Origin: Gammaproteobacteria bacterium | GTDB taxonomy: Bacteria > Pseudomonadota > Gammaproteobacteria > Tethybacterales > Persebacteraceae | Reading direction: 5' to 3' | Length of the DNA: 64,000 nt | Assembly: GCA_965221835.1 (NCBI GenBank) | Contig: OZ244916.1 | Span: 528,750 to 592,749, forward strand | Part shown: in pieces, positions 1,914-64,000 of the stretch | Numbering within the stretch: position 1 is the stretch's first letter | How the letters are laid out: every line of letters begins with the position of its first letter | Position numbers and translations under genes: made by a program | Notes under the pieces: model-generated | Databases searched by the model: none | Told to the model about the DNA's origin: nothing | What the model saw: only the letters and a program-made list of their open reading frames with translations

Positions 1914-3218
1914 ATGTCGCCGCCGGTAATGCCCGATAGTGTCGTTTTCCCGTGCGGGACGGATGCCGATTTGTCCGCGTTGGCGGCGTATCGTGCGGCG
2001 GGCGGTTATGAAGTTTTGGAGCGCGTTTTGCGCGAAAAAATCAACCCGGACGATTTGCTGGCACAAATTAAAGAATCCGGATTGCGCGGGCGCGGCGGGG
2101 CGGGATTTCCGACCGGACTTAAATGGTCGTTCATTCCGCGCGGACTGCCGACCGATGTGTATCTCGTTTGCAACAGCGACGAAGGCGAACCCGGCACATT
2201 CAAAGATCGCGACATTTTGCGCCGCAATCCGCACCAATTAATTGAGGGAATGATTTTGGGCGCGTACATTATGGGCGCATCGCGCGGCTACAACTATATT
2301 CACGGCGAAATTTGGGAGGCGTACGAATTGATGGAACGGGCGGTGGACGAATCGCGCACCGCCGGTTATTTGGGCGATGATATTCTCGCTTCCGGATTTT
2401 CGTTTGAGTTGTACAATCATCATGGCTACGGGGCGTATATTTGCGGCGAAGAATCGGCGTTGCTGGAATCGTTGGAAGGCAAAAAAGGGCAGCCGCGCAA
2501 CAAACCGCCGTTTCCGGCGAGTAGCGGATTGTACGGCAAACCGACGACGATTAACAACACCGAAACTTTCGCGTGCGTTCCCTATATTTTGCGGCACGGC
2601 GGCGAAAAATTCGCGGCGCTCGGCAAACCGAACAACGGCGGCACGAAAGTTTTTTCGGTGTCCGGACATGTGGAAAAACCGGGCAACTACGAAGTGCCGC
2701 TCGGCTTTCCCTTCGCCGATTTGCTCAAAATGGCGGGCGGCGTGCGCGGCGGACGCAAACTGAAAGCGGTCATTCCCGGCGGTTCTTCGGTGCCGGTCGT
2801 GCCGGGCGAAAAAATGATGGAACTGACAATGGATTACGATTGTCTCGGCAAAGCGGGAACGATGTTAGGTGCGGGTTCGGTGATTGTGATGGACGAAAAT
2901 GTTTGTATGGTGCGGGCGTTAATGCGCCTTTCGTATTTTTATTTTGAAGAATCGTGCGGGCAATGCACGCCGTGCCGAGAAGGGACGGGCTGGCTGTATC
3001 GCGTCGTCAAACGGATAGAAGAAGGCGAGGGACGCGCGGACGATTTGGACTTACTAAAAAGCGTTTCCGACAACATAGACGGGCGAACGATTTGCGGTTT
3101 AGGCGCGGCAGCGGCAACACCGGTACGCAGTTTTATCAAACACTTCCGCGCAGAGTTTGATTATCATATTCAACACAAAAAATGCCTCCCCGGCACTTGC
3201 GGATTTGGCGATGAGTGA
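1914..3218 (+). CDS. nuoF: NADH-quinone oxidoreductase subunit F
   Basis: 434 aa with [18 protein letters not shown] (NADH/FMN site) and the C-terminal [12 protein letters not shown] 4Fe-4S motif. Confidence 0.95.
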
Positions 3219-3234: not shown

Positions 3235-3987
3235 TTACTCCGCTTTCACCGATTTGCATTCCGGTAGATAGCGGCGTTTCAGAATTTCATACGGCGACTC
3301 CGGTCGGTAAATGTTGTTTTTGTCTGCGTCTAAACAATGGAAAGCGTAGCAATCTTTCAACAGCGTCTTCGTATTGACGCCAGTGGCTACGATAAAATGG
3401 TAATCCTTGCCCCATCCAAAATGCCGCCCCTTATCGGCTGTTCTGCACGGTGTTCTTCGGCAAAACCGAGGCGAACGTACTAATACTGCAAGTGTAGGGG
3501 GAGGGATAATTTGAGGTTTTTTACGCCTTGATGTCGCATACTCTGCCATTTCCACGACGAATTCGTGTTCTTTCGGAAATTTCATAAAGTGGTAGAATTC
3601 TTTTTCATGATCCATGGCAAAAACAATCTGGTTATCGCAATTAATCGGACGCAAGCAGACCATATTCATATCAGTACACCAGCCGCCGATTTTGCGAAGC
3701 AGTTCCCAGCGAAACCAATCCGAGCATCCGTCCAGCGATCTGCCGATAGAGTAAATTTTGCTTTTCGGCAAAATGTTTTCAGCGTTGCCCATAATCACCT
3801 TTCCCGGTGCCGTGTCGGACGGCAGATTCGGAATGTCGCCGTACGACCAAAGGTGAAAATCATGTCCGTTCGCGCAGAACGAGTGTATGCAAAGCCGTGC
3901 CAAATCAGAAAGCGGCTTGTCTTTGTCGTCCGGAGAAATCCAAAGTCCGTTAAATACTTTATTGTTGGTGGAAAATTTTTCGTTCAT
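3235..3987 (-). CDS. glycosyltransferase-like protein (DXD-motif sugar-binding / capsular-synthesis family), possibly degenerate
   Basis: 250 aa. N-terminal LWISPDDKDKPLSDLARLCIHSFCANGHDFHLWSY and central SDWFRWELLRKIGGWCTDMNMVCLRP match the family pattern I recall (sD..R..lL..yGG.Y.D.D). The DXD position reads D-M-N. AT-rich and on the opposite strand to the nuo genes. Confidence 0.55.
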   Translation of the reverse strand: MNEKFSTNNKVFNGLWISPDDKDKPLSDLARLCIHSFCANGHDFHLWSYGDIPNLPSDTAPGKVIMGNAENILPKSKIYSIGRSLDGCSDWFRWELLRKIGGWCTDMNMVCLRPINCDNQIVFAMDHEKEFYHFMKFPKEHEFVVEMAEYATSRRKKPQIIPPPTLAVLVRSPRFCRRTPCRTADKGRHFGWGKDYHFIVATGVNTKTLLKDCYAFHCLDADKNNIYRPESPYEILKRRYLPECKSVKAE

Positions 3988-4131
3988 AGCGGTCTCTTTC
4001 GTTTCCGCCTGAAAATCGGGCGATCATCCTCGTCATTATACGGAATTTCCTCCGAAATGCATAAAATACGATTCACGCCGCCCAATTTGCGTGTACAATA
4101 TCGGGTGTTTGAGTAGTTTGGAGGAATTATT

Positions 4132-4539
4132 ATGCATATCATTTATTGCGCTGTCTGTATTAATTATGGACCTGATAGGATAAACAAAAAATATATCGGA
4201 CGAACCCGATATATTTATGTCGACACGGGTGGACAGATTATTAGACCGAACCGGCGATCGTTAGACGAAGACCAGCGTACGCTTGTCAAAGTGCAGAATC
4301 GGCATTTGGAGTGTGCGCGTATCCGTGGAAATTGCCTGCATTTTTATAACGCCCTCCGATGCTACGGAAATGACCAGTTCTGTTGGGGCGTTATTGATAC
4401 TGCCGAAACTCGGAAAGAAGCGATTAAAAAAGAAACAGGGTATATCGTCAAGCATAAAACGTACAAGAGAGAATACGGATACAACCTTCTCCTCAATCAC
4501 TCCGATTTGCCGGATGAGCAAGGAGGGCTTTCAATATAA
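4132..4539 (+). CDS. stand-alone GIY-YIG nuclease domain protein (I-TevI-like catalytic domain, no DNA-binding tail)
   Basis: 135 aa: HIIYCAV...KKYIGRT...NRHLE...HFYNALRCYGNDQFCWGVID..ETRKEAIKKETGYI...EYGYNL. This parallels the I-TevI layout GIY..YVGS..RW.RH...LQRSFNKHGNVFECSILEE..E..WI..LNS..GYNI. GGAGG RBS about 8 nt upstream. 18/60 G+C at 4141-4200. Confidence 0.65.
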   Translation: MHIIYCAVCINYGPDRINKKYIGRTRYIYVDTGGQIIRPNRRSLDEDQRTLVKVQNRHLECARIRGNCLHFYNALRCYGNDQFCWGVIDTAETRKEAIKKETGYIVKHKTYKREYGYNLLLNHSDLPDEQGGLSI

Positions 4540-4608
4540 TTCATGCGTGCGCCGTGGATGTGATATGCAAAATGCTGAAAGTTGCGCAAACAGGGTATAA
4601 TATCAACG

Positions 4609-5019
4609 ATGAATGAGCAAGCGCAAACGCCGTTTTTTGCGGAAGTTGTCGCCGCTTTGCGCGAAAGTTTCCGCATTTCCGAAGCGGACAAACAGGCGAA
4701 ATTCGGGGTATTTCGGCGCTTTTTCTTCAATTTAATGCAAATCGGCGGGGCGGTGTTTTATCCTCTGTGGGTTGCGTCAAAAACGCCGCGGCAGTTGTTT
4801 TCGGATAACGCTGATTTATACAATCAAATGGCGGATGTCGGCTTTTGGCTTGTAGCGGCGGGCTGGTTTTTGTGCGCGTTGTTTTGCCGCGTGGAAATGA
4901 ACGACAAAAGCGGGCGCGTTCGTACGATGCATCCCGCCGGACAGTTCGGCGGACGAGTTTTGGCGGCGGGCGCGTTGCTATTAATCGCGGCGATTGCGAT
5001 TGATGCATTTGCGGCATAA
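4609..5019 (+). CDS. hypothetical small membrane protein (about 3 hydrophobic segments)
   Basis: Track ORF 4582-5019 trimmed to ATG 4609 (MNEQAQTPFF...). Hydrophobic stretches IGGAVFYPLWVA, VGFWLVAAGWFLCALF and VLAAGALLLIAAIAIDAF. No homolog recognised. Confidence 0.45.
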   Translation: MNEQAQTPFFAEVVAALRESFRISEADKQAKFGVFRRFFFNLMQIGGAVFYPLWVASKTPRQLFSDNADLYNQMADVGFWLVAAGWFLCALFCRVEMNDKSGRVRTMHPAGQFGGRVLAAGALLLIAAIAIDAFAA

Positions 5020-5059
5020 CGCCGCCTGCAATTTCGGCAAAATCTGATATAATTCCGAA

Positions 5060-5431
5060 ATGGGTGCGATTGCGAAGTTGAAGAATAACGGGCGGGCGGC
5101 GAATTCGGCGGTCGCGGTGCGCGTTAAATCTGCAAAAACGGCGGCGAAATCGGAGGAGTTGCCGGAATCGTATACGGACAAAGTGCGGCGGGGCGGCGGA
5201 CGGACGAAACTCGCCGAGGATGCGGGAGTTTTGTTTGAAAGAATTCAGGATTTTGCCGAAAAACACGAACTTCCGCGCGGATTGAAACGCCGATTGGATA
5301 ATTGCACCGATGCTTTGTGGGATTTGGAAATGGAAGAAGACGCGAAAAGCGGCGCATTGGAGCGCGGCTATGGCGAAGCGGCGAGGCGCGCGCGACTCAC
5401 CGGCGCACGCGGCGAAAATGATCCTTTGTGA
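5060..5431 (+). CDS. putative antitoxin partner (unclassified fold), copy 1
   Basis: 123 aa. Its stop overlaps the downstream GTG start (GTGA). Position and size fit the upstream partner of a type II TA pair. No DNA-binding fold recognised by eye. Confidence 0.45.
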   Translation: MGAIAKLKNNGRAANSAVAVRVKSAKTAAKSEELPESYTDKVRRGGGRTKLAEDAGVLFERIQDFAEKHELPRGLKRRLDNCTDALWDLEMEEDAKSGALERGYGEAARRARLTGARGENDPL

Positions 5432-5694
5432 AACATCGCAAAAATGCCGATTTTGACAAGGCATATTCGCGATTGCCGCCGCGCATACAACATCTTGCGG
5501 ACAAATGCTTTGAAAAACTACGCGAAAATCCGCCGCGTCCGTCCGTCCGTCTAAAACGAGTCGGATTGAATTGGGCGGCGCGAGTTGACGGAAACTACCG
5601 AATGACGGGAACGATGTCTGATGACGGCGAGAGTATTGAATGGTTTGATGTGGATACGCACAAAAAACGCGACAAACTTTTACGGCGGCGATAA
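5428..5694 (+). CDS. RelE/ParE-superfamily toxin-like protein, copy 1
   Basis: 88 aa: FDKAYSRLPPRIQHLADKCFEKLRENPPRPSVRLKRVGLNWAARVDGNYRMTGTMSDDGESIEWFDVDTHKKRDKLL. The pattern (LP..IQ, NP..PS.R.K.V, W.ARV...YR, I.WF......H) matches RelE/ParE toxins as I recall them. Confidence 0.6.
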   Translation: MKHRKNADFDKAYSRLPPRIQHLADKCFEKLRENPPRPSVRLKRVGLNWAARVDGNYRMTGTMSDDGESIEWFDVDTHKKRDKLLRRR

Positions 5695-5796
5695 CGCGAT
5701 TTTCCGCCATTCATAACCGGCGGAAAAAAGCCGCGTTTCGGGCGGGGAATCGGCAAATTGCCGCCGTCCGCCGCAAAAATCAGGTATAATTCCGAA

Positions 5797-6165
5797 ATGG
5801 GTGCGATTGCGAAATTGAAGAATAACGGGCGGGCGAATTCGGCGGTCGCGGTGCGCGTTAAATCTGCAAAAACGGCGGCGAAATCGGCGGAGTTGCCGGA
5901 ATCGTATACGGACAAAGTGCGGCGGGGCGGCGGGCGAACGAAACTCGCCGAGGATGCGGGAGTTTTGTTTGAAAGAATTCAGGATTTTGCCGAAAAACAC
6001 GAACTTCCGCGCGGATTGAAACGCCGATTGGATAATTGCACCGATGCTTTGTGGGATTTGGAAATGGAAGAAGACGCGAAAAGCGGCGCATTGGAGCGCG
6101 GCTATGGCGAAGCGGCGAGGCGCGCGCGACTCACCGGCGCACGCGGCGAAAATGATCCTTTGTGA
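5797..6165 (+). CDS. putative antitoxin partner, copy 2
   Basis: Track ORF 5758-6165 trimmed to the MGAIAKL start shared with copies 1 and 3. Differs from copy 1 by a one-codon indel (RAANS/RANS) and one E/A change. Confidence 0.45.
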   Translation: MGAIAKLKNNGRANSAVAVRVKSAKTAAKSAELPESYTDKVRRGGGRTKLAEDAGVLFERIQDFAEKHELPRGLKRRLDNCTDALWDLEMEEDAKSGALERGYGEAARRARLTGARGENDPL

Positions 6166-6428
6166 AACATCGCAAAAATGCCGATTTTGACAAGGCATAT
6201 TCGCGATTGCCGCTGCGCATACAACATCTTGCGGACAAATGCTTTGAAAAACTACGCGAAAATCCGCCGCGTCCGTCCGTCCGTCTAAAACGGGTCGGAT
6301 TGAATTGGGCGGCGCGAGTTGACGGAAACTACCGAATGACGGGAACGATGTCCGATGACGGCGAAAGTATTGAATGGTTTGATGTGGATACGCACAAAAA
6401 ACGCGACAAACTTTTACGGCGGCGATAA
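6162..6428 (+). CDS. RelE/ParE-superfamily toxin-like protein, copy 2
   Basis: 88 aa, identical to copy 1 except P18L. Same GTGA overlap. Confidence 0.6.
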   Translation: MKHRKNADFDKAYSRLPLRIQHLADKCFEKLRENPPRPSVRLKRVGLNWAARVDGNYRMTGTMSDDGESIEWFDVDTHKKRDKLLRRR

Positions 6429-6530
6429 CGCGATTTTTTGCCATTCATAACCGGCGGAAAAAAGCCGTGTTTCGGGCGGGAAATCGGCAAATTGCCGCCG
6501 TCCGCCGCGAAAATCTGATATAATTCCGAA

Positions 6531-6914
6531 ATGGGTGCGATTGCGAAATTGAAGAATAACGGGCGGGCGAATTCGGCGGTCGTGGCGCGCGTTAAATCTG
6601 CAAAAACGGCGGCGAAATCGGAGGAGTTGCCGGAATCGTATACGGACAAAGTGCGGCGGGGCGGCGGACGGACAAAACTCGCCGAGGATGCGGGAGTTTT
6701 GTTTGAAAGAATTCAGGATTTTGCCGAAAAACACGAACTTCCGCGCGGATTGAAACGCCGATTGGATAATTGCACCGATGCTTTGTGGGATTTGGAAATG
6801 GAAGAAGACGCGAAAAGCGGCGCATTGGAGCGCGGCTATGGCGCGATTGCCCGGTCTTCGGGAAAAAGCATTCCGTTGGAAGAGGCGCTGGAAAAAATGA
6901 AATCTCGGCGGTGA
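6531..6914 (+). CDS. putative antitoxin partner, copy 3 (divergent C-terminus)
   Basis: 127 aa. The first ~104 residues are near-identical to copies 1 and 2. The C-terminus is replaced by AIARSSGKSIPLEEALEKMKSRR. Confidence 0.45.
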   Translation: MGAIAKLKNNGRANSAVVARVKSAKTAAKSEELPESYTDKVRRGGGRTKLAEDAGVLFERIQDFAEKHELPRGLKRRLDNCTDALWDLEMEEDAKSGALERGYGAIARSSGKSIPLEEALEKMKSRR

Positions 6915-7180
6915 TAAAACATCGCATCAAAGAAAAATTTTGGAAGCGGTATAAGAAGTTACCGCCGCGCATACAATCTCTTGTGGATGAATGTTTTGGG
7001 AAGTTGCACGAAAATCCGCCGCGTCCGTCCGTCCGTCTAAAACGGGTCGGATTGAATTGGGCGGCGCGAGTTGACAAAAACTACCGAATGACGGGAACGA
7101 TGTCCGATGACGGCGAGAGTATTGAATGGTTTGATGTGGACACGCACAAAAAACGCGACAAACTTTTGCGGCGGCGATAG
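6911..7180 (+). CDS. RelE/ParE-superfamily toxin-like protein, copy 3 (divergent N-terminus)
   Basis: Track ORF 6770-7180 trimmed to the in-frame GTG at 6911, which overlaps the upstream stop as in copies 1 and 2. The N-terminal ~33 aa differ (IKHRIKEKFWKRYKKLPPRIQSLVDECFGKLHE). The last ~55 aa match copy 1 except for one G/K change. Confidence 0.55.
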   Translation: MIKHRIKEKFWKRYKKLPPRIQSLVDECFGKLHENPPRPSVRLKRVGLNWAARVDKNYRMTGTMSDDGESIEWFDVDTHKKRDKLLRRR

Positions 7181-7245
7181 CGCCCGTTTTTTGTCGCCCG
7201 AAAAACTTTAACTTGCGTTTAACTTGCGGAAATTCGCAAAAAAAT

Positions 7246-7272
7246 CCGTCCGCCGCAAAAATCAGGTATAAT
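7246..7272 (+). promoter_or_regulatory. promoter-like 27-mer CCGTCCGCCGCAAAAATCAGGTATAAT upstream of nuoG
   Basis: Identical 27-mer at 5764-5790 (upstream of TA copy 2). The -10 hexamer TATAAT is at 7267-7272. A related AAAATCAGGTATAATT occurs at 15217-15233, upstream of the 928-aa surface-protein gene. Confidence 0.5.
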
Positions 7273-7297
7273 TTGCCGATGAAAAAGGGGCATCGCC

Positions 7298-9589
7298 GTG
7301 GAAATTGAACTGGAAATTAACGGGCAGAAAGTGCGGGCGCAAGAAGGCGCCACAATTATGCAGGTTGCAACGCAAATGGGGTTGTATATTCCCCATTTTT
7401 GCTGGCATCCGAAGTTGTCTATCGCCGCCAATTGCAGGATGTGTTTGGTGGAAGTGGAAAAATCGCCGAAACCGCTGCCGGCATGCGCTACCGTCGCGTT
7501 GGATGGAATGAGTGTGCAACTTTATTCGCCCAAAGCGAAAGAGGCGCAAAATAGCGTGATGGAGTTTTTGCTGATTAATCATCCGCTGGATTGCCCCATT
7601 TGCGACCAAGGCGGCGAATGTCAATTGCAAGATTTGGCGGTCGGTTATGGCGTTTCCAAATCGCGTTACGCCGAAGAAAAACGCGTTGTGCTGGAAAAAA
7701 ATCTCGGTCCGCTTATCGCTACCGATATGACACGATGCATTCATTGCACCCGCTGCGTCCGTTTCGGGCGCGAAATCGGCGGCATTATGGAACTCGGCAT
7801 GACCGGACGCGGCGAACACGCCGAAATTATGCCGTTCGTGGAACGCACCGTCAATTCCGAATTGTCCGGCAATATGATTGATGTCTGCCCCGTCGGCGCG
7901 CTGACTTCCAAACCTTTTCGGTTTACTGCGCGTCCGTGGGAGTTGTCGCATGCGCCCGGCATTTCGCCGCACGATTCGTGGGGCGCAAATCTGACTTTGC
8001 AAACCAAAGACGGAAATGTTATGCGCGTTGTCCCGCGCGAAAAAGAGGACATTAACGAATGCTGGATTTCGGACCGCGACCGCTTTTCATATCCCGGATT
8101 GGCAGCGGCGGATCGCGCGAAAACGCCGATGCTCCGCGCCCCCGATGCGCGACAATTTTCCGATGCGGGCTGGCGCGAATCTGTTGCCGTTGTCGTCCGC
8201 GAATTGCGAAAACGCGCGCCCGAAAAAACCGCGTTTTTTATTTCGCCGCACGCGACATGCGAAGAAATGTTTTTGTGGCAAAAACTCGCCCGCGCCCTCG
8301 GATGCGAAAATATCGATTCGCGATTGCGGCAACGCGATTTTTCGGCGGAAACGCCGTCCCGATTCGGATTTTCCGTTTCCGCGTTAGAAAAGGCGGGGGC
8401 GGTGTTGTTTGTCGGCGCGGATCCGGCGCGCGAACAGCCGCTTATCGCGCCCCGGTTGCGCAAACGCCGCCGCTTGTTTTCGGTCGGGGCGCGCAATATC
8501 GGCGGCGTTTTTCCGGCGGCGACTCAACAAATCTGCCGCCCGTCCGAAATCGCGATGCATTTGCGGCACATCAACGGACTTTTGAACGAAGCGCACCGTC
8601 TGGAAACATTGTTTGACGAAGGCAAAACCGTCGCCGAAGAAATCAAAACAATTGCGAAAAGTTTTGCCGCGCCGGCGAAAGGCGAAAAACACATTATCCT
8701 CGGCGATGCGGTTTGCGGCGCGGAAGATTTTGGCGATATTTTTCGGGCGGCGCAAATACTCGCCGAAACGACCGGCGCGAGTTTGGGGACGCTTTCTGCC
8801 GGTGCGAACGGCGCAGGCGCGCGACATTTCGGGGCGTTCGCGCGCGAGGGCGGAATGCCGGTCGGCGCGATGTTGCGCGCCGCACCCGATGCGGTAATGT
8901 TGTTCGGTTGCGAACCGCGCGATTTTGCCGAAAACGCGCTTGCAAAACAGACATTTGCCGCCGCCGGTTTTGTCTGCGTGCTCGCGCCTTTTAGCGGCGG
9001 CGTACGCGATTTTGCGCATGCGATTTTGCCGCTCGCGACATTCGGCGAAAACGAAGGAACGCTGATGAACGGCGAAGGAAAAATGCAACAATTTTCCGCT
9101 GTTGCCGCACCGCCCGCCGAATCGCGTCCGGGCTGGAAAGTGTTGCGTGTATTAGGAGAAGCGTTGGGTTTGGATGGATTCAAATTTAATACTTTGAACG
9201 AAGTGCGCGAAATGATGAAAGACGCGCCGCAGTTTTCGCCCGCGCTTTTGCAAAACGAAACCGCCGAATCGCTCGCGGATTCTTTGGAAGTTATCGGCGG
9301 CGTGCCGATTTACGATTCGGATATGCTCGTTCGCCGCGCGACTCCGTTGCAAAAAACGGCGCGCGGGGCGGAATCGGCGACCGTGCGAATGCATCCGGAC
9401 GATATGGCGCGACTCGGATTTGCGGACGGGGCGGCGGTTATTCTCGGCGACGGTGAAGCGGAAGAAGAATCGCGCGCGTTTGCGGATTCCGCCGTTGCGC
9501 GCGGGGCGATTGCCGCCTATCCGTCCGGGTTGTGCGGTGCGCGGCTTTGCGTGTCGGCGGCGGAAGTGCCGCAACAGGCGGCGGGTTGA
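7298..9589 (+). CDS. nuoG: NADH-quinone oxidoreductase subunit G
   Basis: 763 aa. N-terminal 2Fe-2S/4Fe-4S region INGQKV...[21 protein letters not shown]...[18 protein letters not shown]...[13 protein letters not shown] start with a GGGG Shine-Dalgarno 7 nt upstream. Confidence 0.95.
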
Positions 9590-10729: not shown

Positions 10730-11449
10730 ATGTTTTTGACCGATGAAGAGCGGGCGTATGAACGCGGACGAGAGGGCGAAGACGCGGTGGGTTTGGAATT
10801 GATGCAACTGCCGGAAAACGACTACGCCGTTTTGCATAATTTGCTGCTACCCATCGGGCGGGGCTACACCCAAATTGATCATATTGTATTTTCCCGCAAA
10901 GGCGTTTGGGTTTTGGAAACCAAAACGGTGGGCGGCAACATTTACTGCAAAGCCGGCGACAGAACATGGACGCAAGTTATGCGAAACGGACATAAAACGG
11001 TGTTCCAAAATCCGATTCGGCAAAACTATAAACATGTACTTGCCGTGCAGAGAATAACCAGATTGCCGCGGGGTGCAATTTACGATATTATCGTTTTTGC
11101 GGGCGCCGCGATATTTCGGACACCGCGCCCGGAACAAGTTGTCATGTGCGATGAATTGCTGGATGAAATTTTTTCGCGCCGGGATGATTCGCTTTCGGTG
11201 ATGCAAATTAAGCGCGCCATTGCGGCGATATATTATGCCGACAAACAGAACAATGAAGAGGCGGTTAATAGACATTTGACGGATGTGCGGCAACGCAAGG
11301 AACGGAATGAACAGCGCCGCGCCCGGCGACTTGCCGCCCGGGAAATGCGCACGCAATATGCCGAAGGCAGTTCGTCTGCATATAACGGGAAAGGGTGTTT
11401 TTGGATTATAATCGCGGCATTAATATTCTTGTTTTTGTTTATTCGTTAA
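10730..11449 (+). CDS. NERD (nuclease-related domain) protein with C-terminal hydrophobic anchor
   Basis: 239 aa: GREGEDAVGLELMQL..YAVLHNLLLP..GYTQIDHIVFSRKGVWVLETKTVGGNIY...QNPIRQNYKHV fits the NERD pattern as I recall it. Basic RRARRLAAREMR stretch followed by CFWIIIAALIFLFLFI. Confidence 0.65.
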   Translation: MFLTDEERAYERGREGEDAVGLELMQLPENDYAVLHNLLLPIGRGYTQIDHIVFSRKGVWVLETKTVGGNIYCKAGDRTWTQVMRNGHKTVFQNPIRQNYKHVLAVQRITRLPRGAIYDIIVFAGAAIFRTPRPEQVVMCDELLDEIFSRRDDSLSVMQIKRAIAAIYYADKQNNEEAVNRHLTDVRQRKERNEQRRARRLAAREMRTQYAEGSSSAYNGKGCFWIIIAALIFLFLFIR

Positions 11450-14982: not shown

Positions 14983-15066
14983 GCCGAGGTGGCGGAATTG
15001 GTAGACGCGCCGGACTCAAAATCCGGTGTCGGAAACGGCATGAGGGTTCGAGTCCCTCCTTCGGCA
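14983..15066 (+). tRNA. tRNA-Leu (anticodon CAA)
   Basis: GCCGAGGTGGCGGAATTGGTAGACGCG-CCGGA-CTCAAAA-TCCGG, a long variable arm, then GAGGGTTCGAGTCCCTC-CTTCGGC-A. Folded by hand into a cloverleaf. Closely resembles E. coli tRNA-Leu. Confidence 0.9.
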
Positions 15067-15070
15067 CCGC

Positions 15071-15144
<74 letters not shown>

Positions 15145-18068: not shown

Positions 18069-18229
18069 CACCCACCCCCCGCCCAACAAATAATCGGAAA
18101 GCGGGGGATTTCCCGCATCATCCCGCCCCCGTTTGCGGAGGCGGAAGATGTTTGCTTTTTTCCGATTTTTGTTATAATCGGAAGTATGCATTTATGCGCT
18201 TGCTATTTTTTAATAAAGGAGACAAAACA

Positions 18230-28228: not shown

Positions 28229-29578
28229 ATGAAAATCAAGACCGTTCTTTTGCCGCTTTTCGCCGCCGTTTTGTTTGCGATTTCGCCGCCCGCTTTTGCT
28301 GGAGAAATTCCATTACTACTCCCTTGTGATGATATAGATAGAAAACACAATAAAAAGCATTATTCAAGAAAAGGAGACAACTCCTCCCACGGCGTGCTTA
28401 TTAGCATGGCTAAATGCTCTGACTCAGAAAATGAAAGAAGGCGGCTTTTGCAAATTGTTTCGGATAGAGGCATTCCTGCAGGAAAATATCTTTTGGCTTG
28501 GCTTGAGTATTCAGAAAATTGGGATGTAGAAGAAACAACAGATTTAGAAAATCTGAAAAAATCTTATGATTTATTTATGGAAACTTTGGAAAGTATTCAA
28601 GATCAGCCCGACTACCCTTATGTAAGTGAAATTGGTGATAAAGAAGTATATAATGACAGTTACTATGAGATGCGATTTGGAATCTTACCCCATTCTTGTA
28701 TTTCTAAAAGTTATGCACTATACGAAATGCAACTTCAAGTACCAATTGAAACTATCAATCAAATCAATAGATACGAAGATCTTCAAAAACAAATTTGCGG
28801 TAGTTTGGATGAAAACAATCAACCATTAGAAACTGCTATCAGTTATAGAAATAAAATTAAAGAACGTGTATTAGAAAAAAGAGGACATAGAATCAGCGGC
28901 TTTGATGAAAGATATGAAAGAAATTTCAATAAATTAGATAATGAAGAACTTGTAAAATTTTTTAGAGATTTGTTATCTTTTGCATTAAATCCAACAGATA
29001 ATACTGATACACAATCAAAATCGGAATATGCGGCGGCGGCGTTTGCGGCGATGTCGGAAAATGAACAGGCGGAGTTTTGTATTTCAATTCGCAGTCCGCA
29101 AAGACCGTGTTTTTGTACAACTGGAATTGTCTGCACGGAAAATTATTGCATAGATAGACCGAATTGCATTGAACCCGAAGATGTGGATTATGGGCATTTG
29201 CTAAACGATTATACGCCGTCCGAAAAATCGGCGGAAGAATCAGCGGCGGAAGAACCGGCGAACGAATCGGCGACAGATGAATCGGTTGCGGACGAATCGG
29301 TGAACGAATCGGCGGCGGAAGAATCACCGGCGGAAGAACCGGCGGAAGAAATAGCGGAAGAACCGGCGGAACCGGAAACAAAAACCGTATGCCGTTCTTT
29401 TGCAAACGGCATAAATCCCGACAATACGGAATGGGGAAGAATTGGTGCAAGCGAAGCGGGAGTAGGCGAAACGGAATATGCGGCTATCCGTGCGGCAATA
29501 AGAATATGCGAAAATGACGGCTTAACAGAATGTCAAACCGATTTGGAAGTCAAATGCGAGGAAGTTGCGGTACAATAA
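28229..29578 (+). CDS. secreted hypothetical protein: AT-rich unique N-terminal part plus shared acidic/Cys-rich C-terminal module
   Basis: Trimmed to MKIKTVLLPLFAAVLFAISPPAFA. The N-terminal ~270 aa have no homolog I recognise (18/60 G+C at 28321-28380). The C-terminal ~175 aa are near-identical to the C-terminus of 31610-32794. Confidence 0.7.
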   Translation: MKIKTVLLPLFAAVLFAISPPAFAGEIPLLLPCDDIDRKHNKKHYSRKGDNSSHGVLISMAKCSDSENERRRLLQIVSDRGIPAGKYLLAWLEYSENWDVEETTDLENLKKSYDLFMETLESIQDQPDYPYVSEIGDKEVYNDSYYEMRFGILPHSCISKSYALYEMQLQVPIETINQINRYEDLQKQICGSLDENNQPLETAISYRNKIKERVLEKRGHRISGFDERYERNFNKLDNEELVKFFRDLLSFALNPTDNTDTQSKSEYAAAAFAAMSENEQAEFCISIRSPQRPCFCTTGIVCTENYCIDRPNCIEPEDVDYGHLLNDYTPSEKSAEESAAEEPANESATDESVADESVNESAAEESPAEEPAEEIAEEPAEPETKTVCRSFANGINPDNTEWGRIGASEAGVGETEYAAIRAAIRICENDGLTECQTDLEVKCEEVAVQ

Positions 29579-29640: not shown

Positions 29641-30777
29641 ATGAAAATCAAATCTATTATTTTATCGCTGTTTGCGGTTTTTGCGTTGGCAGTTTCGCCC
29701 GTTTCTTTCGCCGATAAATGCTCGTTATGCGGTCCTGCCTTTAATGGCGACATTGCTGAAATTAATCGTCTGCTTGCTGGCGGGGCGAATGTGGATGCGA
29801 CAAGTGAGACCGGCTGGACGGCTTTGATGTTTGCGACAATACAGGGACATGCCGAAGTTACCGAGATTCTGTTGGCGGCGGGAGCGGATGTGAATATGGC
29901 GGATAATGGCGGTGGGACGGCTTTGTATAATGCGGTAATACGAAGACATGCCGAAGTTGCGAAAATGCTCATAGCGGCGGGTGCAAATCCAAATGCGGTG
30001 GGTAAAGACGGTATAACGAGTTTGATAATGGCGGCAAGAAACGGATATACCGAAGTTGCCGAGATTCTGTTGGCGGCGGGGGCGAATCCGAATGCGGCAG
30101 AAGAGGATGGCGAGACAGTTTTGATAGCGGCGGCAAGAAACGGACATGCCGAAGTTGCGAAAATTCTCATATCGGCGGGGGCAAATGTGAATGTGGCGAG
30201 TAAGTCCGGCTGGACGGCTTTGATAGCAGCGGGATTCGGACATGCCGAAGTTGTTAAGATTCTGTTGTCGGCGGGGGCGAATCCGAATGCGGAGGATAAT
30301 GGCGGCTGGACGGCTTTGATAGTGGCGGCAAGATACGGACATGCCGAAGTTGCGAAAGTTCTAATTGCGGCGGGGGCGAATGTGGATGCGGCGAGTAATG
30401 ACGGCAAGACGGCTTTGTATTTGGCGGAAGATAACGGACATGCCGAAATTATTAATATCTTGGAATGTTATAAGTCCGATTTAACTTCGCTTCCGCCCGA
30501 AGTGTATGCCGACCGAAAACTGGTAGAAGTGGAACGGCAAATCGGCGAGGGCGATTATGCGGCGGCGGCGTTGACGATGGGATTTATCGCTTGTTATAGC
30601 GAAAAAAATGATGTCGCCCTACCGACAGAGTTTCATTTTAAGAATGCGCAGATATTGCAACTTGCCGGCGACAATAAGAGGGCGTTGACGGCGATTACCG
30701 CCTATTTGAAGGAAGCGGGGCGGGAAGGCGAAAACTATTTGGCGGCATTGCAAATGTTGGATGAGTTGGAAAAATGA
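29641..30777 (+). CDS. secreted ankyrin-repeat protein (about 8 repeats) with helical C-terminal region
   Basis: Trimmed to MKIKSIILSLFAVFALAVSPVSFA. Repeated G.TAL..A...GH.EV...LL.AGAN.N units. Confidence 0.9.
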   Translation: MKIKSIILSLFAVFALAVSPVSFADKCSLCGPAFNGDIAEINRLLAGGANVDATSETGWTALMFATIQGHAEVTEILLAAGADVNMADNGGGTALYNAVIRRHAEVAKMLIAAGANPNAVGKDGITSLIMAARNGYTEVAEILLAAGANPNAAEEDGETVLIAAARNGHAEVAKILISAGANVNVASKSGWTALIAAGFGHAEVVKILLSAGANPNAEDNGGWTALIVAARYGHAEVAKVLIAAGANVDAASNDGKTALYLAEDNGHAEIINILECYKSDLTSLPPEVYADRKLVEVERQIGEGDYAAAALTMGFIACYSEKNDVALPTEFHFKNAQILQLAGDNKRALTAITAYLKEAGREGENYLAALQMLDELEK

Positions 30778-31609: not shown

Positions 31610-32794
31610 ATGAAAATCAAATCTATTATTTTGCCGTTGTTTGCGGTTTTTGCGTTGGCAGTTTCGCCCGTTGCGGTTGCCTCTGAATGCCCGTTATGCA
31701 AACCCGCCAAAAACGGCGATATTGCTGAAGTTAAGCGTTTGCTTGACGGCGGGGCGAATCCGAATGCGGTGTCTTATGACGGCTTTTCTACGGCTTTGAT
31801 GTATGCGACATTTTTCGGACATGCCGAAATTGCGAAAATACTGTTGTCGGCGGGGGCGAATCCGAATGCGGCGATTATTAACGGCGAGACGGTTTTGATA
31901 TTGGCGACAATCAAAGGACATGCCGAAATTGCGAAAATGTTGTTTTCGGCGGGGGCTAATCTGGATTTGGCAGACAACAACGGCGTGACGGCTTTGATGA
32001 TTGCGACAGAGAAAGGACATGCTGAATTTGTAAAAGTGTTATTAGAAAGCGGGGCAAATCCGAATGCGGTGGATAATGACGGCTGGACGGCTTTGGAGAT
32101 TGCGGAACATTATGGACATACCGAAGTTATTTCTATTTTGCAGAATTTTCGCCCGTCTATTTCGCCGGAGGATATTGAGTTTGCGCCGTTTGATGAAAAT
32201 AACATAGATTTGCAGGATGAAATTATTAAGGATAAATCAGAATATGCCTTTCGTCAATTTTCGGCGATGTCGGAAAATGAACAGGCGGAGTTTTGTATTT
32301 CAATTCGCAGTCCGCAAAGACCATGTTTTTGTACAACGGGAATTGTCTGCACGAAAAATTATTGCATAGACAGACCGAATTGCGTTGAACCCGAAGATGC
32401 AGATTACAAACATTTGCTAAATGATTATACGCCGTCCGAAAAATCGGCGGAAGAATCAGCGGCGGAAGAACCGACAAACGAATCGGCAGCAGATGAATCG
32501 TCAGCGGAAGAACCGGCGGAAGAACCGGCGGCGGAAGAATCACCGGCAGAAGAACCGGCGGAAGAAATAGCGGAAGAACCGGCGGAACCAGAGACGAAAA
32601 CGGTATGCCGTGCTTTTGCAAACGGCATAAACCCCGACAATACGCAATGGGGAAGAATTGGTGCAAGCGAAGCGGGAGTGGGCGAAACGGAATATGCCGC
32701 TATCCGTGCGGCAATAAGAATATGCGAAAATGACGGCTTAACAGAATGTCAAACCGATTTGGAAGTTGAATGCGAGGAAGTTTTGGTACAATAA
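31610..32794 (+). CDS. secreted ankyrin-repeat protein (about 4-5 repeats) fused to the shared acidic/Cys-rich C-terminal module
   Basis: 394 aa. Signal peptide MKIKSIILPLFAVFALAVSPVAVA. Ankyrin units. The C-terminus from SAMSENEQAEFCISIRSPQRPCFC to ...ECEEVLVQ duplicates that of 28229-29578. Confidence 0.9.
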   Translation: MKIKSIILPLFAVFALAVSPVAVASECPLCKPAKNGDIAEVKRLLDGGANPNAVSYDGFSTALMYATFFGHAEIAKILLSAGANPNAAIINGETVLILATIKGHAEIAKMLFSAGANLDLADNNGVTALMIATEKGHAEFVKVLLESGANPNAVDNDGWTALEIAEHYGHTEVISILQNFRPSISPEDIEFAPFDENNIDLQDEIIKDKSEYAFRQFSAMSENEQAEFCISIRSPQRPCFCTTGIVCTKNYCIDRPNCVEPEDADYKHLLNDYTPSEKSAEESAAEEPTNESAADESSAEEPAEEPAAEESPAEEPAEEIAEEPAEPETKTVCRAFANGINPDNTQWGRIGASEAGVGETEYAAIRAAIRICENDGLTECQTDLEVECEEVLVQ

Positions 32795-50860: not shown

Positions 50861-50924
50861 GGGAAGGCGGAAATGACGGCGGGCGGGAATTTGGGAGGCG
50901 TTTGCCCGTGTTATAATCTTTTGT

Positions 50925-51824
50925 ATGCTGAATGAAGTTTTTATTACTTGTGCGGTAACCGGCAGCGGCGATAGTGTTGCAAAATCGGAACATGTGCCGA
51001 TTACGCCGAAACAAATTGCGGATGCCGCAATTGATGCGGCGAGGGCGGGGGCGGCGATTGTGCATTGTCATGTTCGCGACCCGAAAACCGGAAAACCATC
51101 GCGAGATCCGGAATTGTACCGCGAAACGACAATGCGCATTCGCGATTCCGCCGAAGATGTTGTTTTGAATTTGACTGCCGGACACGGTGCGGATTTGGTG
51201 TTGCCCGGTGCGGAAACGCCGCTGCCGCCCGATGCGGCGAAAACCGATATGGCGGGTGCGACCGAAAGATGCAAACATTTGGAGTTGTGCCGCCCCGAAA
51301 TCGCGACATTGGATTGCGGCACGATGAATTTCGGCGAGGGCGATTATGTGATGACAAACACGCCTGCGATGTTGCGGGCGATGGCGGTGCGCATGCGCGA
51401 ACTCGGAGTCAAACCGGAAATGGAAGTTTTTGATACCGGGCATTTGTCGTTTGCCAAAAAACTCGTCGCCGAAGGATTGATAGAATCGCCGCCCCTCGCG
51501 CAGTTTTGCACAGGAATTCCGTGGGGCGCGCCGGACGATTTAAATACGCTTCTCGCGTTGGTCAACAACACGCCCGCCGGATGGATTTATTCGGCGTTTT
51601 CCATCGGGCGAATGGAGTTGCCGTTTGTCGCCGCCGCGACTCTTGCCGATGGCAATGTGCGGGTCGGGCTGGAAGATAACTTATATTTGCAAAAAGGAAT
51701 TAAGGCGACAAATCAAATGTTGGTAGAACGCGCGGCGACAATTTTATCGGCGATGAATGTTCGCATTTTGTCGCCGCAAGAAGTGCGCGAAAAATTGCAA
51801 GTTCAAAAACGCGCGCCGATTTAA
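50925..51824 (+). CDS. BKACE-family (3-keto-5-aminohexanoate cleavage / DUF849) enzyme, probable dehydrocarnitine cleavage enzyme
   Basis: 299 aa: ITCAVTGSGDSVAKSEHVPITPKQIADAAIDAARAGAAIVHCHVRDPKTGKPS. Adjacent to a carnitine-dehydrogenase-like gene. Confidence 0.8.
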   Translation: MLNEVFITCAVTGSGDSVAKSEHVPITPKQIADAAIDAARAGAAIVHCHVRDPKTGKPSRDPELYRETTMRIRDSAEDVVLNLTAGHGADLVLPGAETPLPPDAAKTDMAGATERCKHLELCRPEIATLDCGTMNFGEGDYVMTNTPAMLRAMAVRMRELGVKPEMEVFDTGHLSFAKKLVAEGLIESPPLAQFCTGIPWGAPDDLNTLLALVNNTPAGWIYSAFSIGRMELPFVAAATLADGNVRVGLEDNLYLQKGIKATNQMLVERAATILSAMNVRILSPQEVREKLQVQKRAPI

Positions 51825-51853: not shown

Positions 51854-53284
51854 ATGATTAAACGGGTGGCGATTATCGGCGGCGGCGTTATCGGTGCGGG
51901 ATGGACGGCGCGGCTGGCGTTAAACGGAGTTGAAACGCGCGTATATGATCCGGATTCGGATGCGCCGCGCAAAGTCGGAGAGACGATGCAAAATGCCGCC
52001 GCTGCTATCGGCAAACTGACTTCCGCGCCGTTGCCGCCGCCGGTTGCGCCGTTGTTTGTCGATTCTATCGCCGCCGCTGTTGCCGATGCCGAATGGATTG
52101 TGGAAGCCGTGCCGGAACGCGCTGAATTGAAAAAAAATGTATACGCGGAAATTGAATCCGCTTGTCCGGCAGACGCGCTGATTTCTTCGTCTACTTCCGG
52201 TTTTCGTCCGAGTATGTTGCAAGAAGAAATGACGAATCCGGCGCGTTTTATTGTTGCGCATCCGTTCAATCCGGTGTATCTTTTGCCGCTGGTGGAAATT
52301 GTGTGCGGCGAAAAAACCGCGCCGCAAACGGGCGAAAATGCGGCGGAAATATTAACTGCATTGGGAATGCGTCCGTTGCGAGTCAAAAAAGAAATTGACG
52401 CTTTTATCGCGGATCGTTTAATGGAAGCGTTGTGGCGTGAGGCGTTGTGGCTTGTGCATTCCGGTGCGGCGACGACCGCCGACATAGACGATTCCATTCG
52501 TTTCGGTTGCGGATTGCGATGGGCGCAAATGGGGACATTTGAAACTTTTCGCATCGCAGGCGGCGAAGGCGGAATGGCGCATTTCTTAAAACAATTCGGA
52601 CCGTGTTTGCAATGGCCGTGGACGAAACTTACGGATGTGCCGGAATTGACCGATGATTTTGCGGAAGAAATCGCGGCGCAATCAGATGCGCAATCGTCCG
52701 GCTATTCGGTGCGCGATTTGGAACGAATTCGCGATGACAATCTCATCGCTTTTTTGCAAGGATTGAAAGCCAACAATTGGGGGGCGGGCGAAACGCTGGC
52801 GAAATGGGAAAACCGTTTGCATTCGTTAGCATCCGCACCGGAAAATATTTCGCCGCCGTTGCGCACTTTGACGAGACGGGCGCCTCGCCATTGGACGGAT
52901 TATAACGGACACATCAACGAAAGCCGCTATCTGGAATGTTTCAGCGATGCATCGGATGCGGTCATGCGCATTATCGGGGCGGACGAAAAATATGTTGCCG
53001 CCGGAAATTCTTATTTTACGGTAGAAACGCGCATTCGCAATCTGCAAGAAATGCGGGCGGGAGATGCGATATTTTGCGATTCTACGATACTTTTCGCCGA
53101 AGGAAAAAAACTAAAATTGTTGCACGAATTGAAAAACGAACAAGGCGAAATATGCGCGACCGGAGAACATCTTTTAATTCATGTCAATTTAAACACGCGC
53201 CGTTCTTCCTTTCCTGCGGACGATATATTGCACCGCGCCCAAAAAATTGCCGCCGCCTGCGCCGCATTGCCGCCGTCCGATTAA
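51854..53284 (+). CDS. L-carnitine dehydrogenase-like 3-hydroxyacyl-CoA dehydrogenase family protein fused to a C-terminal thioesterase domain
   Basis: 476 aa. Rossmann motif VAIIGGGVIGAGW, then FIVAHPFNPVYLLPLVE. The C-terminal ~150 aa are hotdog-like (WTDYNGHINESRYLECFSDA). Confidence 0.75.
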   Translation: MIKRVAIIGGGVIGAGWTARLALNGVETRVYDPDSDAPRKVGETMQNAAAAIGKLTSAPLPPPVAPLFVDSIAAAVADAEWIVEAVPERAELKKNVYAEIESACPADALISSSTSGFRPSMLQEEMTNPARFIVAHPFNPVYLLPLVEIVCGEKTAPQTGENAAEILTALGMRPLRVKKEIDAFIADRLMEALWREALWLVHSGAATTADIDDSIRFGCGLRWAQMGTFETFRIAGGEGGMAHFLKQFGPCLQWPWTKLTDVPELTDDFAEEIAAQSDAQSSGYSVRDLERIRDDNLIAFLQGLKANNWGAGETLAKWENRLHSLASAPENISPPLRTLTRRAPRHWTDYNGHINESRYLECFSDASDAVMRIIGADEKYVAAGNSYFTVETRIRNLQEMRAGDAIFCDSTILFAEGKKLKLLHELKNEQGEICATGEHLLIHVNLNTRRSSFPADDILHRAQKIAAACAALPPSD

Positions 53285-61974: not shown

Positions 61975-62305
61975 GCCTCCCCGCCGTCATTTTTTACCAT
62001 TCCGATGTAAATCGGAATCTCCCCCGCCGCCGTAATTTTCGCCGACAAAATCCCGCCTTCCCCGCTGTCATTCCCGCGAACGCGGGAATCCATTTTCGCC
62101 GATAAATTCCCGCGTTCACGCCGTTTTTTGCGAAAAAAATGCGCGGGAATTCCAAAATTAATTTTCGCGTAAAATGTGCCGCCTCCCCGCCGTCATTCCC
62201 GCGAAAGCGGGAATCCATTTTTACCGACAAATTCCCGCGTTCACGCCGTTTTTTGCGAAAAAAATGTGCGGAAATTCCAAACTTAATTTTCGCGTAAAAT
62301 GTGCC
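61975..62305. repeat. intergenic hairpin-repeat array: two 125-bp tandem units plus a related upstream hairpin
   Basis: ATTCCCGCGAACGCGGGAAT at 62070-62089 and ATTCCCGCGAAAGCGGGAAT at 62195-62214, exactly 125 bp apart. Related ATTCCGATGTAAATCGGAAT at 61999-62018. The units 62056-62180 and 62181-62305 are near-identical. Confidence 0.85.
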
Positions 62306-62435: not shown

Positions 62436-64000
62436 ATGAAAAACACAATCAATAAAATCATTCTTTTCGCCGCTGTTTTGTTTGCGGCGGGATTTACCGT
62501 TTCGGCGGCGAATGCGCAACAACAGGTTGTTTTTGGTCCGCCGCCGCCCGAAGGAGACCATATTGTCGGAACGCAATGGGTTCCAGAAGGACAATCGGCA
62601 CTGATATATGAATTTACCGATTCTATTCAAGAACATTACAGAAGGAATTCAGGGGCAATATCATGGACAACATGGATGAGATTTTTGGCTATTAACAACG
62701 CCCCGGTAAGAGTAACCAATAATCTTCCCGTATTTCAGATATCCGCTACTGAAATGCGTGAGATACAACCGGGCGACAATTTGATTTTGTATGACCAATT
62801 GGAACAGAGTCATAACTTGACTCTTATCGTTTATATTCGGGCAGACAACGAGTATGGGTTGGCGATGAGTTTAAGTGTGGCAATTAATCCCATGCCTTTA
62901 TCGCCTCCGAATATATTTTTGAATTCCTTAACTTTTCGTTCGACTTCACAGCCCGCCGCAACAAATATCAGACCGGTAAATATCATATTGCCGGATTGCA
63001 CCGGCGGTGCAACGCTGAATGGAAATGTTTGCGAATGTGCAACTGACGCATTGCCGATATTGCAAGACGATGGCGGAAACTCCTTTTCCTGCCGTGCCCC
63101 TAACTCCGCAACCGAATGCCCGGACGAATTTTTTAACAACGCCGTTTCACCCGCCCGATGCGACCCGATTCCGACTTGCGACACAACAACGGAATTAAAT
63201 ACCGGTACGAATATGTGCGATTGCAGAACCGGATTTTCCGGAAGAGTAAGCCCGACAATGTGCGAAAGAAACGCAGCGGATTGCACGGGAGCGACTCCTG
63301 TTTTGTTTAACGGCATTTGCGTAGCCGCTTGTGAATCGGACGAAGCAAGAAACGCCGCCGGAAACTGCGTACCGAATCCTGCAAATTGCGAGGCGAATGC
63401 GATTACTAACCCGGACGATGATATGAATTGCATTTGCATTGACGACATGCATCAATTTGTTGCAGGTTCCACAACGGAATGCGAACCGATTCCCGCAACT
63501 TGCGGGGCGAATGCGATAAATGACCCGAACGATAATACGATGTGCGTTTGCGTTGACGAAATGCATAGATTTGTTGAAGGTTCTACGACAATGTGCGAAC
63601 CGAATTCGCAAGATAACATGGAAGAAACCGAAATGGGAAACGAAATGGAAACCGAAATGGAAGAATCGCAAAATCCGCAATTGCAACCGCAAAACATTGG
63701 AAGCGGCAGACCGAAAGAGTTTGCGTATATCGGGGCGGGCGTTTTTATTATCGGTTTTGCAGCAAGTTATATTGCAGGCGGCGATTTTCCGATATTCACT
63801 TATTCCCCCGATTTTGGATATTCGTTAACCGAAAGCGGCTATTCCGCAAATGTCGGCGGACGGGCGGATTTCCGAAAAGACAATTGGCATTTGTATTATT
63901 CCGCAAATCAAACAAACGCAAACGGCGAATTTGACGATTTCCGTTATACATCGGGCGGCAGATATAACGGCGATTTATTTGCGGCGGCATTTTCCGAATC
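62436..64000 (+). CDS. Cys-rich repeat / beta-barrel-anchor family member 3 (3' end outside the window)
   Basis: Absent from the ORF track because it has no stop in the window. I translated it codon by codon with no stop: MKNTINKIILFAAVLFAAGFTVSAANAQQ..., Cys modules (CEANAITNPDDDMNCICIDDMHQFVAGSTTEC twice), hydrophobic FAYIGAGVFIIGFAASYIAGG, then PDFGYSLTESGYSANVGGRADFRKDNWHLYYSANQTN..., matching the C-domains of members 1 and 2. Confidence 0.85.
   Translation, partial: MKNTINKIILFAAVLFAAGFTVSAANAQQQVVFGPPPPEGDHIVGTQWVPEGQSALIYEFTDSIQEHYRRNSGAISWTTWMRFLAINNAPVRVTNNLPVFQISATEMREIQPGDNLILYDQLEQSHNLTLIVYIRADNEYGLAMSLSVAINPMPLSPPNIFLNSLTFRSTSQPAATNIRPVNIILPDCTGGATLNGNVCECATDALPILQDDGGNSFSCRAPNSATECPDEFFNNAVSPARCDPIPTCDTTTELNTGTNMCDCRTGFSGRVSPTMCERNAADCTGATPVLFNGICVAACESDEARNAAGNCVPNPANCEANAITNPDDDMNCICIDDMHQFVAGSTTECEPIPATCGANAINDPNDNTMCVCVDEMHRFVEGSTTMCEPNSQDNMEETEMGNEMETEMEESQNPQLQPQNIGSGRPKEFAYIGAGVFIIGFAASYIAGGDFPIFTYSPDFGYSLTESGYSANVGGRADFRKDNWHLYYSANQTNANGEFDDFRYTSGGRYNGDLFAAAFSE

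Follow-up and report, generated by a model that had tools for sequence, protein, structure and literature searches.

A tandem array of small genes was analyzed in a 64,000-nucleotide stretch of DNA from a member of the Persebacteraceae (Gammaproteobacteria, Tethybacterales; contig OZ244916.1, positions 528,750 to 592,749), hereafter referred to as the window. The array is flanked upstream by nuoF (complex I 51-kDa subunit; 1914..3218, plus strand), assigned by the Pfam Complex1_51K match of its orthologues and by tblastn, and downstream by nuoG (7298..9589, plus strand), assigned by tblastn and synteny. It comprises three head-to-tail units of a two-gene module at 5033-7251 of the plus strand, each built from an extended -10 box, a partner gene, a gene for a toxin-like protein of 88-89 residues, and a spacer. 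Alignment of the three units placed unit 1 (type A) at 5033..5769, including an internal spacer, unit 2 (type A) at 5770..6503, and unit 3 (type B), which has the same flanks, a diverged central cassette and a different 3' spacer, at 6504..7251. Their lengths were 737, 734, and 748 bp, with start-to-start periods of 737 and 734 bp.

All genes of the array are encoded on the plus strand, and the partners range from 122 to 127 residues. The antitoxin-like partner genes were found at 5060..5431 (copy 1, type A, 123 residues; open reading frame (ORF), homologues P0003-P0005 and P0155-P0162, and hhalign), at 5797..6165 (copy 2, type A, 122 residues from the ATG; ORF), and at 6531..6914 (copy 3, type B, 127 residues; ORF), the last with the C-terminal end ...GKSIPLEEALEKMKSRR, as in the outgroups. 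The toxin-like genes follow at 5428..5694 (copy 1, type A, 88 residues; predicted ParE_like/RelE-fold protein from ORF, profile search, and model), 6162..6428 (copy 2, type A, 88 residues; ORF), and 6911..7180 (copy 3, type B, 89 residues; ORF and model), the copy used for structure modeling. In all three units, the toxin-like gene starts at a GTG overlapping the TGA of the partner gene (GTGA), and this 4-bp overlap would couple translation of the toxin to that of its partner.

Units 1 and 2 were identical at 716 of 737 positions. Their toxins differed solely by P18L, and their partners by one codon insertion/deletion (indel; RAANSA versus RANSA) plus one substitution (E to A). The original prediction, made from the sequence alone, had described a tandem triplication of a two-gene module with the same periods and the same differences between copies 1 and 2, and every number in it held on re-alignment. 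It had also called the copies near-identical, which was correct for units 1 and 2 but not for unit 3, a mosaic with a diverged block at 6844-7008. Minus-strand ORFs running across the array (4727-5710, 5680-6444, and 6592-7077) were judged spurious because the plus-strand frames are conserved with a ratio of nonsynonymous to synonymous substitution rates (dN/dS) below 0.5, whereas the minus-strand lengths vary in the related loci L003 and L004.

The extended -10-like box of unit 1, AAAATCTGATATAAT, was recognized by sequence as a putative promoter at 5040..5053 (plus strand), 6 nt before the partner ATG, and all units follow the pattern AAAATC(T/A)G(A/G)TATAAT. A 23-bp box, CCGCCGCRAAAATCWGRTATAAT, occurred in three exact copies in the 64 kb (0 expected), two at the unit junctions (5768-5790 and 6502-6524, the box positions of units 2 and 3) and one just before nuoG (7250..7272, plus strand; identical to 5768-5790), where the repeated DNA ends on its 3' side. 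A sigma-70 scan predicted no promoter at these boxes, for want of a -35 match. The spacing of 6-7 nt between box and ATG was conserved in distant relatives, and the motif TATAAT-N5-8-ATG was found nine times in the window against 1.25 expected, several of them at the starts of long ORFs (for example 4596-4611, 5048-5062, 7267-7281, 18173-18188, 50912-50927, and 52889-52904). Because the spacing is conserved and the motif enriched, leaderless partner transcripts are suggested; each unit would produce such an mRNA from its own extended -10 box, and the motif counts suggest that many promoters of this genome lie right against the start codon. The internal spacer contains a 9-bp hairpin and no plus-strand U-tract. 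An origin of the duplication through crossing-over of the partner and nuoG promoters was considered and rejected: the internal spacer matches the nuoG-proximal spacer over its last 28 bp only, and its remainder is similar to what lies upstream of unit 1 in strains without the extra ORFs that precede the array in the window.

Toxin-like protein and its partner

Toxin copy 1 matched Pfam family PF24732 (ParE_like) over profile positions 2-63 of 67 with 12.7 bits and an E value of 0.13. Toxin copy 3 gave no PF24732 match in the Pfam scan, and a library scan returned no NCBIfam match for the toxins. A word-indexed homologue search recovered sister-strain copies only. When 1.84 billion representatives were searched exhaustively with a window-toxin profile, 592 proteins were recovered at E ≤ 1e-3; most were 80-110 residues long and aligned end-to-end. 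PF24732 was matched by 50 of 55 aligned relatives (best E value 6.2e-14), and the same-site orthologue in L009 carries a precomputed match to the same family. As judged from these profile comparisons, the toxin-like protein is a divergent member of the ParE_like family. Ten family-conserved residues were kept: F10, L17, P18, K44, W50, R53, Y58, R59, W73, and H79.

An AlphaFold2 model of toxin copy 3, computed with the family alignment as input, reached a predicted local distance difference test score (pLDDT) of 90.2 and showed the order beta-alpha-alpha-beta4-alpha (strands 3-6, 44-46, 49-53, 58-64, and 70-78; helices 8-16, 19-32, and 79-88). In a Foldseek search with this model, all 19 PDB chains at E ≤ 1e-3 were RelE, YoeB, YafQ, or related toxins, led by RelE2 and RelE1 of Mycobacterium tuberculosis, YoeB, YafQ, and RelE, with E values from 1.9e-5 and TM scores of 0.62-0.70. 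The family profile searched against PDB sequences gave only weak matches to RelE3 and YoeB (E values 0.14-0.27), none of them significant; a match of the single toxin sequence to a myosin-binding protein in the PDB was spurious. On the strength of the model, the toxin-like protein is assigned a RelE/ParE fold. The suggestion that the 88-residue ORF is RelE/ParE-like was thus borne out by profile search, PF24732 relatives, and the AlphaFold2 model with Foldseek alike. A literature search turned up no publication on PF24732 and none that connects Tethybacterales to toxin-antitoxin systems.

Neither partner A nor partner B matched any Pfam or NCBIfam family at E ≤ 1, hence none of the antitoxin families ParD/ribbon-helix-helix, RelB, Phd/YefM, HigA/helix-turn-helix, or DinJ, and four partner homologues gave no family match at E ≤ 5. 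Only 11 clusters of related partners were present in a database of 5.8 billion protein clusters. The conserved core reads RRL-x-NC-x-x-LWD-x-EMEEDAK-x-GA. The partner model (pLDDT 65.6) was confident for residues ~45-100 only; it contained basic disordered residues 1-35, a helical hairpin (49-67 and 72-96), and C-terminal helices of lower confidence, and its matches among PDB folds were chance helical ones (E ≥ 2.7).

At every locus, the partner sits directly upstream of the toxin. For comparison with the usual partner, 80 ParE_like loci from other genomes and phyla were inspected. An upstream ORF, usually of 65-72 residues, was present at 79 of them, and it overlapped the toxin start by 4 bp in 73 of these 79. 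Alignment by hhalign of the window partner family with this canonical partner of ~66 residues, a family absent from Pfam, NCBIfam, and PDB, gave a probability of 96.1% and an E value of 2.9e-9 (columns 75-124 against 26-71). The matching region is the window partner's C-terminal half; the window partner carries in addition a lineage-specific N-terminal extension of ~55 residues predicted to be basic and disordered. By this homology, the partner belongs, with its added N-terminal segment, to a widespread but uncurated family of ~66 residues and is no one-off invention; it is not an isolated new type of antitoxin, because it is homologous to the ORF preceding ParE_like toxins in many phyla. The original prediction had been right that the partner has no known DNA-binding fold, as libraries and model agree, but its proposal of a new antitoxin type did not stand against the hhalign result.

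Central cassette and copy number

Unit 3 was ~99% identical to units 1 and 2 outside 6844-7008, and all clustered differences between units 1 and 3 fell within one block. This block, the type B cassette (6844..7008, plus strand; defined by unit alignment and haplotype comparison), corresponds to the type A cassettes of unit 1 (5376..5522, plus strand; the last ~18 partner codons and the first ~32 toxin codons) and unit 2 (6110-6256, plus strand). Over a length of 147-165 bp, types A and B differed by many substitutions and two indels. The boundaries were sharp, the 170 bp preceding the cassette and the 37 bp after it being identical between versions, and the cassette covers exactly the partner C terminus and the toxin N terminus. 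Two discrete cassette haplotypes were present among the 11 units compared. Of the first 34 toxin residues, 21 are common to A and B, 20 to B and the L004 toxin, and 18 to A and protein P0007; the divergence between the two cassettes was therefore about that of either from other genera. Because these distances match, the cassette alleles are old, with flanks that are being homogenized. The dN/dS between A and B cassettes was 0.40 for the toxin and 0.35 for the partner, and the proportion of synonymous differences, 0.26 over the whole toxin gene, was concentrated in ~35 codons. The cassette in unit 3 was missed in the original prediction, as was the conserved position of the module in the nuo cluster.

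In ParD-ParE systems, all toxin-binding residues lie in the antitoxin's C-terminal half, and operon duplicates are insulated by changes there (PMC7669267). By analogy with ParD-ParE and RelB-RelE, the A/B cassette would correspond to the antitoxin-toxin binding interface. Since the difference is confined to the partner C terminus and the toxin N terminus, which form the interface in those two systems, A and B most likely represent two antitoxin-toxin pairs, each co-adapted and possibly insulated from the other.

Copy number was surveyed in the window and 12 further contigs from four samples (ERZ25072152, ERZ25070530, ERZ25072479, and ERZ25072490) with ~99% flank identity, some of the contigs being covered 100-630x. 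Seven configurations of one to three units were observed: AB on five contigs, BB on three, and A, AA, AAA, ABB, and AAB on one each, the last being the window. At least eight of the contigs over the locus came from a single sample, ERZ25072152, at 18x to 630x coverage. Wherever A and B units occurred together in an array, the A units stood ahead of the B units. Single-nucleotide polymorphisms (SNPs) in the flanks were shared in all combinations over unit types, positions, and strains, as exemplified by a GG/AA pair giving G55 or K55. Because flank SNPs are shuffled and copy number varies, repeated unequal crossing-over and gene conversion are indicated rather than one recent duplication. A second copy within 1.5 kb was present at only one of the 80 other ParE_like loci, where it was diverged; a near-identical array is accordingly unusual for this family. 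The original prediction had attributed the low divergence to amplification or gene conversion, had considered a three-unit array unusual, and had proposed a survey of copy number among relatives and metagenomes; the contigs upheld the first point and answered the third, and the comparison with the 80 other loci upheld the second.

Could the triplication have arisen in assembly, by collapse or expansion of a repeat or as a chimera of strain haplotypes? The co-occurrence of at least eight strain contigs in ERZ25072152 is a setting in which assemblers can build chimeric repeats, and two units on one contig of 2.17x coverage carry frameshifts. Multi-unit arrays recurred, however, on independent contigs of four samples, covered up to 630x, with identical unit boundaries and intact ORFs. 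The units are not exact copies, differing by diagnostic SNPs and an indel, and the contig names resemble long-read assembler output. We consider an artifact highly improbable.

Taken together, the array is probably a chromosomal type II toxin-antitoxin-like module that has been amplified and homogenized by unequal recombination. The layout is that of type II systems, with two small co-directional genes, the partner first, overlapping, and paired across contexts. The downstream gene would encode a RelE/ParE-fold toxin and the upstream gene its cognate helical partner, the C-terminal half of which would bind the toxin. Unequal homologous recombination between sister copies would let the locus grow and shrink between one and three units, and gene conversion would keep the flanks ~99% identical.

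Several points weigh against this interpretation. The score of toxin copy 1 lies below the PF24732 gathering threshold (12.7 versus 24.4 bits). Toxicity and its neutralization by the partner are ascribed to this locus by analogy. Autoregulation is unsupported because the partner shows no recognizable DNA-binding fold in sequence libraries or in the model search. The type A partner lacks the LEEAL...RR tail of type B and the outgroups, although other family members stop there too. Partner type equaled toxin type in every unit, which is expected anyway for a cassette that is one contiguous block of 150 bp. Copy number was read from assembled contigs. Finally, five family-conserved toxin positions are changed (H38R, L41V, W75D, G77D, and Y82R). 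Because these positions are strongly conserved, the toxin of this species may be attenuated or changed in target.

The last point is central to the main rival explanation, according to which the array is an attenuated or decaying toxin-antitoxin relic whose copy number drifts neutrally via unequal crossing-over, with A and B as old, functionally equal haplotypes. Given the departures from the consensus, such a relic is plausible, and we regard it as a real, though clearly less probable, possibility. Four of the most conserved residues are among those replaced (W75D, G77D, Y82R, and H38R), whereas the distant same-site orthologues L004 and L009 keep W, G, and Y at the altered positions. Arrays of one, two, and three units coexist at high coverage in one sample, suggesting weak dosage constraint, and one related lineage keeps an orphan partner without a toxin directly before nuoG. 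Plain decay is, on the other hand, argued against by ORFs that are both intact in 25 of 25 units on contigs of at least 6x coverage, the exception being the two units on the 2.17x contig. It also does not fit a dN/dS below 0.5, which holds even between A and B cassettes, or the retention of the basic and histidine residues K44, R53, R59, and H79.

Residence between nuoF and nuoG

The module was found between nuoF and nuoG, directly before nuoG, in every relative recovered with a NuoF at least 85% identical, and the order nuoF-module-nuoG was found in L001-L014. The partner-toxin pair was conserved in L003, L004, L007 (two pairs), and L008-L014. Partner identity to the window was 67% in MAG_seacave_91 (L003), 44% in L004, and 32% in L008-L013, which are circular contigs of roughly 1.9-2.0 Mb. 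Between diverged orthologues, dN/dS ranged over about 0.17-0.47 (toxin) and 0.31-0.67 (partner), with synonymous rates near saturation. Because these ratios are low, both genes have been kept as coding sequence at this site for a long time; the ratios show purifying selection acting on the module.

The module was absent from "Candidatus Zeuxoniibacter abyssi" (NuoF 80% identical) and from ~75 other proteobacteria, in nearly all of which nuoF and nuoG are adjacent, and the nuoF-nuoG gaps of the more distant L016 and L017 contained no module. "Ca. Zeuxoniibacter abyssi" belongs to the Persebacteraceae (Tethybacterales) and lives as a symbiont of sponges (PMC11525543). In the proposed scenario, the toxin-antitoxin-like module would have entered the nuoF-nuoG gap in the ancestor of a clade related to this organism, comprising sponge-symbiont-like bacteria with genomes of roughly 2 Mb, and would have been inherited since. 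MEX2-MAG1 carries two pairs in a genome context outside nuo.

In L014, a full pair (2292-2763) is followed by two lactamase_B genes and then by an orphan partner abutting nuoG. The orphan (5001-5324) lies 2.2 kb downstream, is 58% identical, has no toxin, and ends 28 bp before nuoG. This order indicates that the site underwent an earlier duplication, after which a toxin was lost and two genes were inserted between the two copies.

Other genes share the gap. In the window, three ORFs separate nuoF from the array (3235-5019): 3235-3987 (minus strand, 250 residues), 4132-4539 (135 residues), and 4582/4609-5019 (145/136 residues). They are present in the window, L002 (6340-8124), and L105, and only the first ~70 bp of the third is left in L005 (7122-7266), L001 (7389-7533), L096, and others. 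Save for a weak match to DUF7549, these ORFs matched nothing in Pfam or PADLOC. Cargo in the gap of L003 (5632-7433), L004 (1597-7779), and L014 (333-4842) includes an N6/N4 DNA methyltransferase, a methyltransferase-HNH fusion, GmrSD, two metallo-beta-lactamase-fold genes, an alcohol dehydrogenase, and OpuAC. Whatever the other cargo, the partner-toxin pair is always the last element before nuoG. By its gene content, this gap forms a strain-variable island across the clade. A slot after nuoH, occupied by a NERD-domain gene in the window (10730-11449) and in L005 and by a D12-class adenine methyltransferase in L002 (13731-14792), is on the same grounds a second strain-variable slot of the split nuo cluster.

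The company of N6/N4 methyltransferases, HNH, and GmrSD in the gap, with NERD nearby, would fit a diversifying defense or exclusion system in which non-cross-reacting A and B pairs are selected, for instance in abortive infection against phages or in exclusion of mobile elements, and differences between arrays are adaptive. The limitation of the A/B difference to the presumed interface would fit as well, as would the old divergence of cassettes that nevertheless both persist in four samples. Partners, toxins, and the three neighboring ORFs gave, however, no PADLOC match at E ≤ 0.1, no phage or mobile-element signature was seen in or beside the array, and single-type arrays (AA, BB, AAA) were as common as mixed ones. 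A defense role of this kind is considered unlikely.

Further features were recorded outside the gap. Upstream of nuoF, just past pnp-rpsO, sister strains carry a gene resembling a DarT-Macro fusion (DarT plus a weak Macro match) and an AraC/Ada-like gene, another locus of toxin-antitoxin or defense type close to the array (L001 1172-2389, L002 107-1192, L005 905-1990). Within the window, tandem repeats with a period of 99/198 bp (29782-30447 and 31817-32104) encode 33-residue units consistent with ankyrin repeats, and acidic repeats of 12-42 bp (GAAGAACCGGCG...) occupy 29222-29371 and 32445-32587 within two neighboring long ORFs. Ank-domain genes also occur near nuoG in the relatives L010 and L012, which fits a host-associated lifestyle. 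Direct repeats of 125 bp (92% identical) and 114 bp were located in non-coding-looking DNA at 62053-62305 and 63366-63605, the 125-bp repeat containing the inverted repeat ATTCCCGCGAAAGCGGGAAT. Two adjacent tRNA genes (14983-15144) were the sole Rfam matches in the 64 kb.

Relation to known systems

The superfamily assignment is correct, and the locus represents a variant of an already known type of system rather than a new type. It is of interest for a dimorphic cassette in a copy-variable array homogenized by conversion, for its long residence in the nuo cluster, and for an uncharacterized ParE_like/partner family. ParE_like toxins with a partner of ~66 residues occupy at least 589 loci in representative genomes, without a solved structure or a curated partner family. 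The location is unusual for a module of selfish type, which has persisted here within a core cluster of respiratory genes in the reduced genome of a symbiont.

Duplicated toxin-antitoxin operons are a standard model for the insulation of paralogous protein pairs, and natural intermediates are rarely seen. Tandem duplicates that differ only in a presumed-interface block of ~150 bp, in seven configurations among co-occurring strains, provide a natural test of insulation. More speculatively, the array could represent natural duplication and insulation in progress, with A and B not neutralizing each other's toxins, an interface cassette shielded from conversion, strain-level diversity in incompatibility or defense, and a complex that possibly modulates nuoG-nuoH transcription. 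The last element, which would tie complex I expression to the module, was considered on account of position, as the array directly precedes nuoG and the 23-bp box of nuoG recurs at the array junctions. This extended scenario is regarded as doubtful.

Compared with RelBE, YefM-YoeB, and DinJ-YafQ, which are type II ribosome-dependent mRNA interferases, the window module shares the fold (best structural matches 3g5o, 9g12, 7v6w, 9lew, 2a6r, and 4mmj), a toxin of ~88 residues, and an antitoxin gene that comes first and is translationally coupled. It differs in that sequence identity is only 11-26%, no PDB sequence matched significantly, and the partner has no RelB, YefM, or DinJ domain.

ParD-ParE toxins are gyrase poisons; duplicated, insulated ParD2E2/ParD3E3 pairs were reportedly studied by Aakre, Lite, and colleagues. 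Common to these systems and the window module are the toxin superfamily, the origin of paralogues via operon duplication, and the position of the A/B cassette, which matches the location of specificity in the antitoxin C-terminal half. In contrast to ParD-ParE, the window partner is devoid of a ribbon-helix-helix ParD domain, the duplicated units have remained in tandem and their flanks are homogenized, and no ParE structure ranked among the best fold matches to the toxin model.

The closest likeness is to the PF24732 ParE_like systems with a partner of ~66 residues found in Cyanobacteria, Alphaproteobacteria, Acidobacteriota, Verrucomicrobiota, Nitrospirota, and other groups. Their toxins are homologous to those of the window, their partner lies upstream with a 4-bp overlap, and the partner is homologous in its C-terminal half, including the motifs WD-x-Q/E-M/I-E-x-D-x-x-x-G and A...G-x-T-x-L. 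The window module departs from them by the ~55 extra N-terminal residues of its partner, by the loss of several consensus residues from its toxin, and by its arrangement as a tandem array of one to three units fixed between nuoF and nuoG, whereas the other loci are nearly always single.

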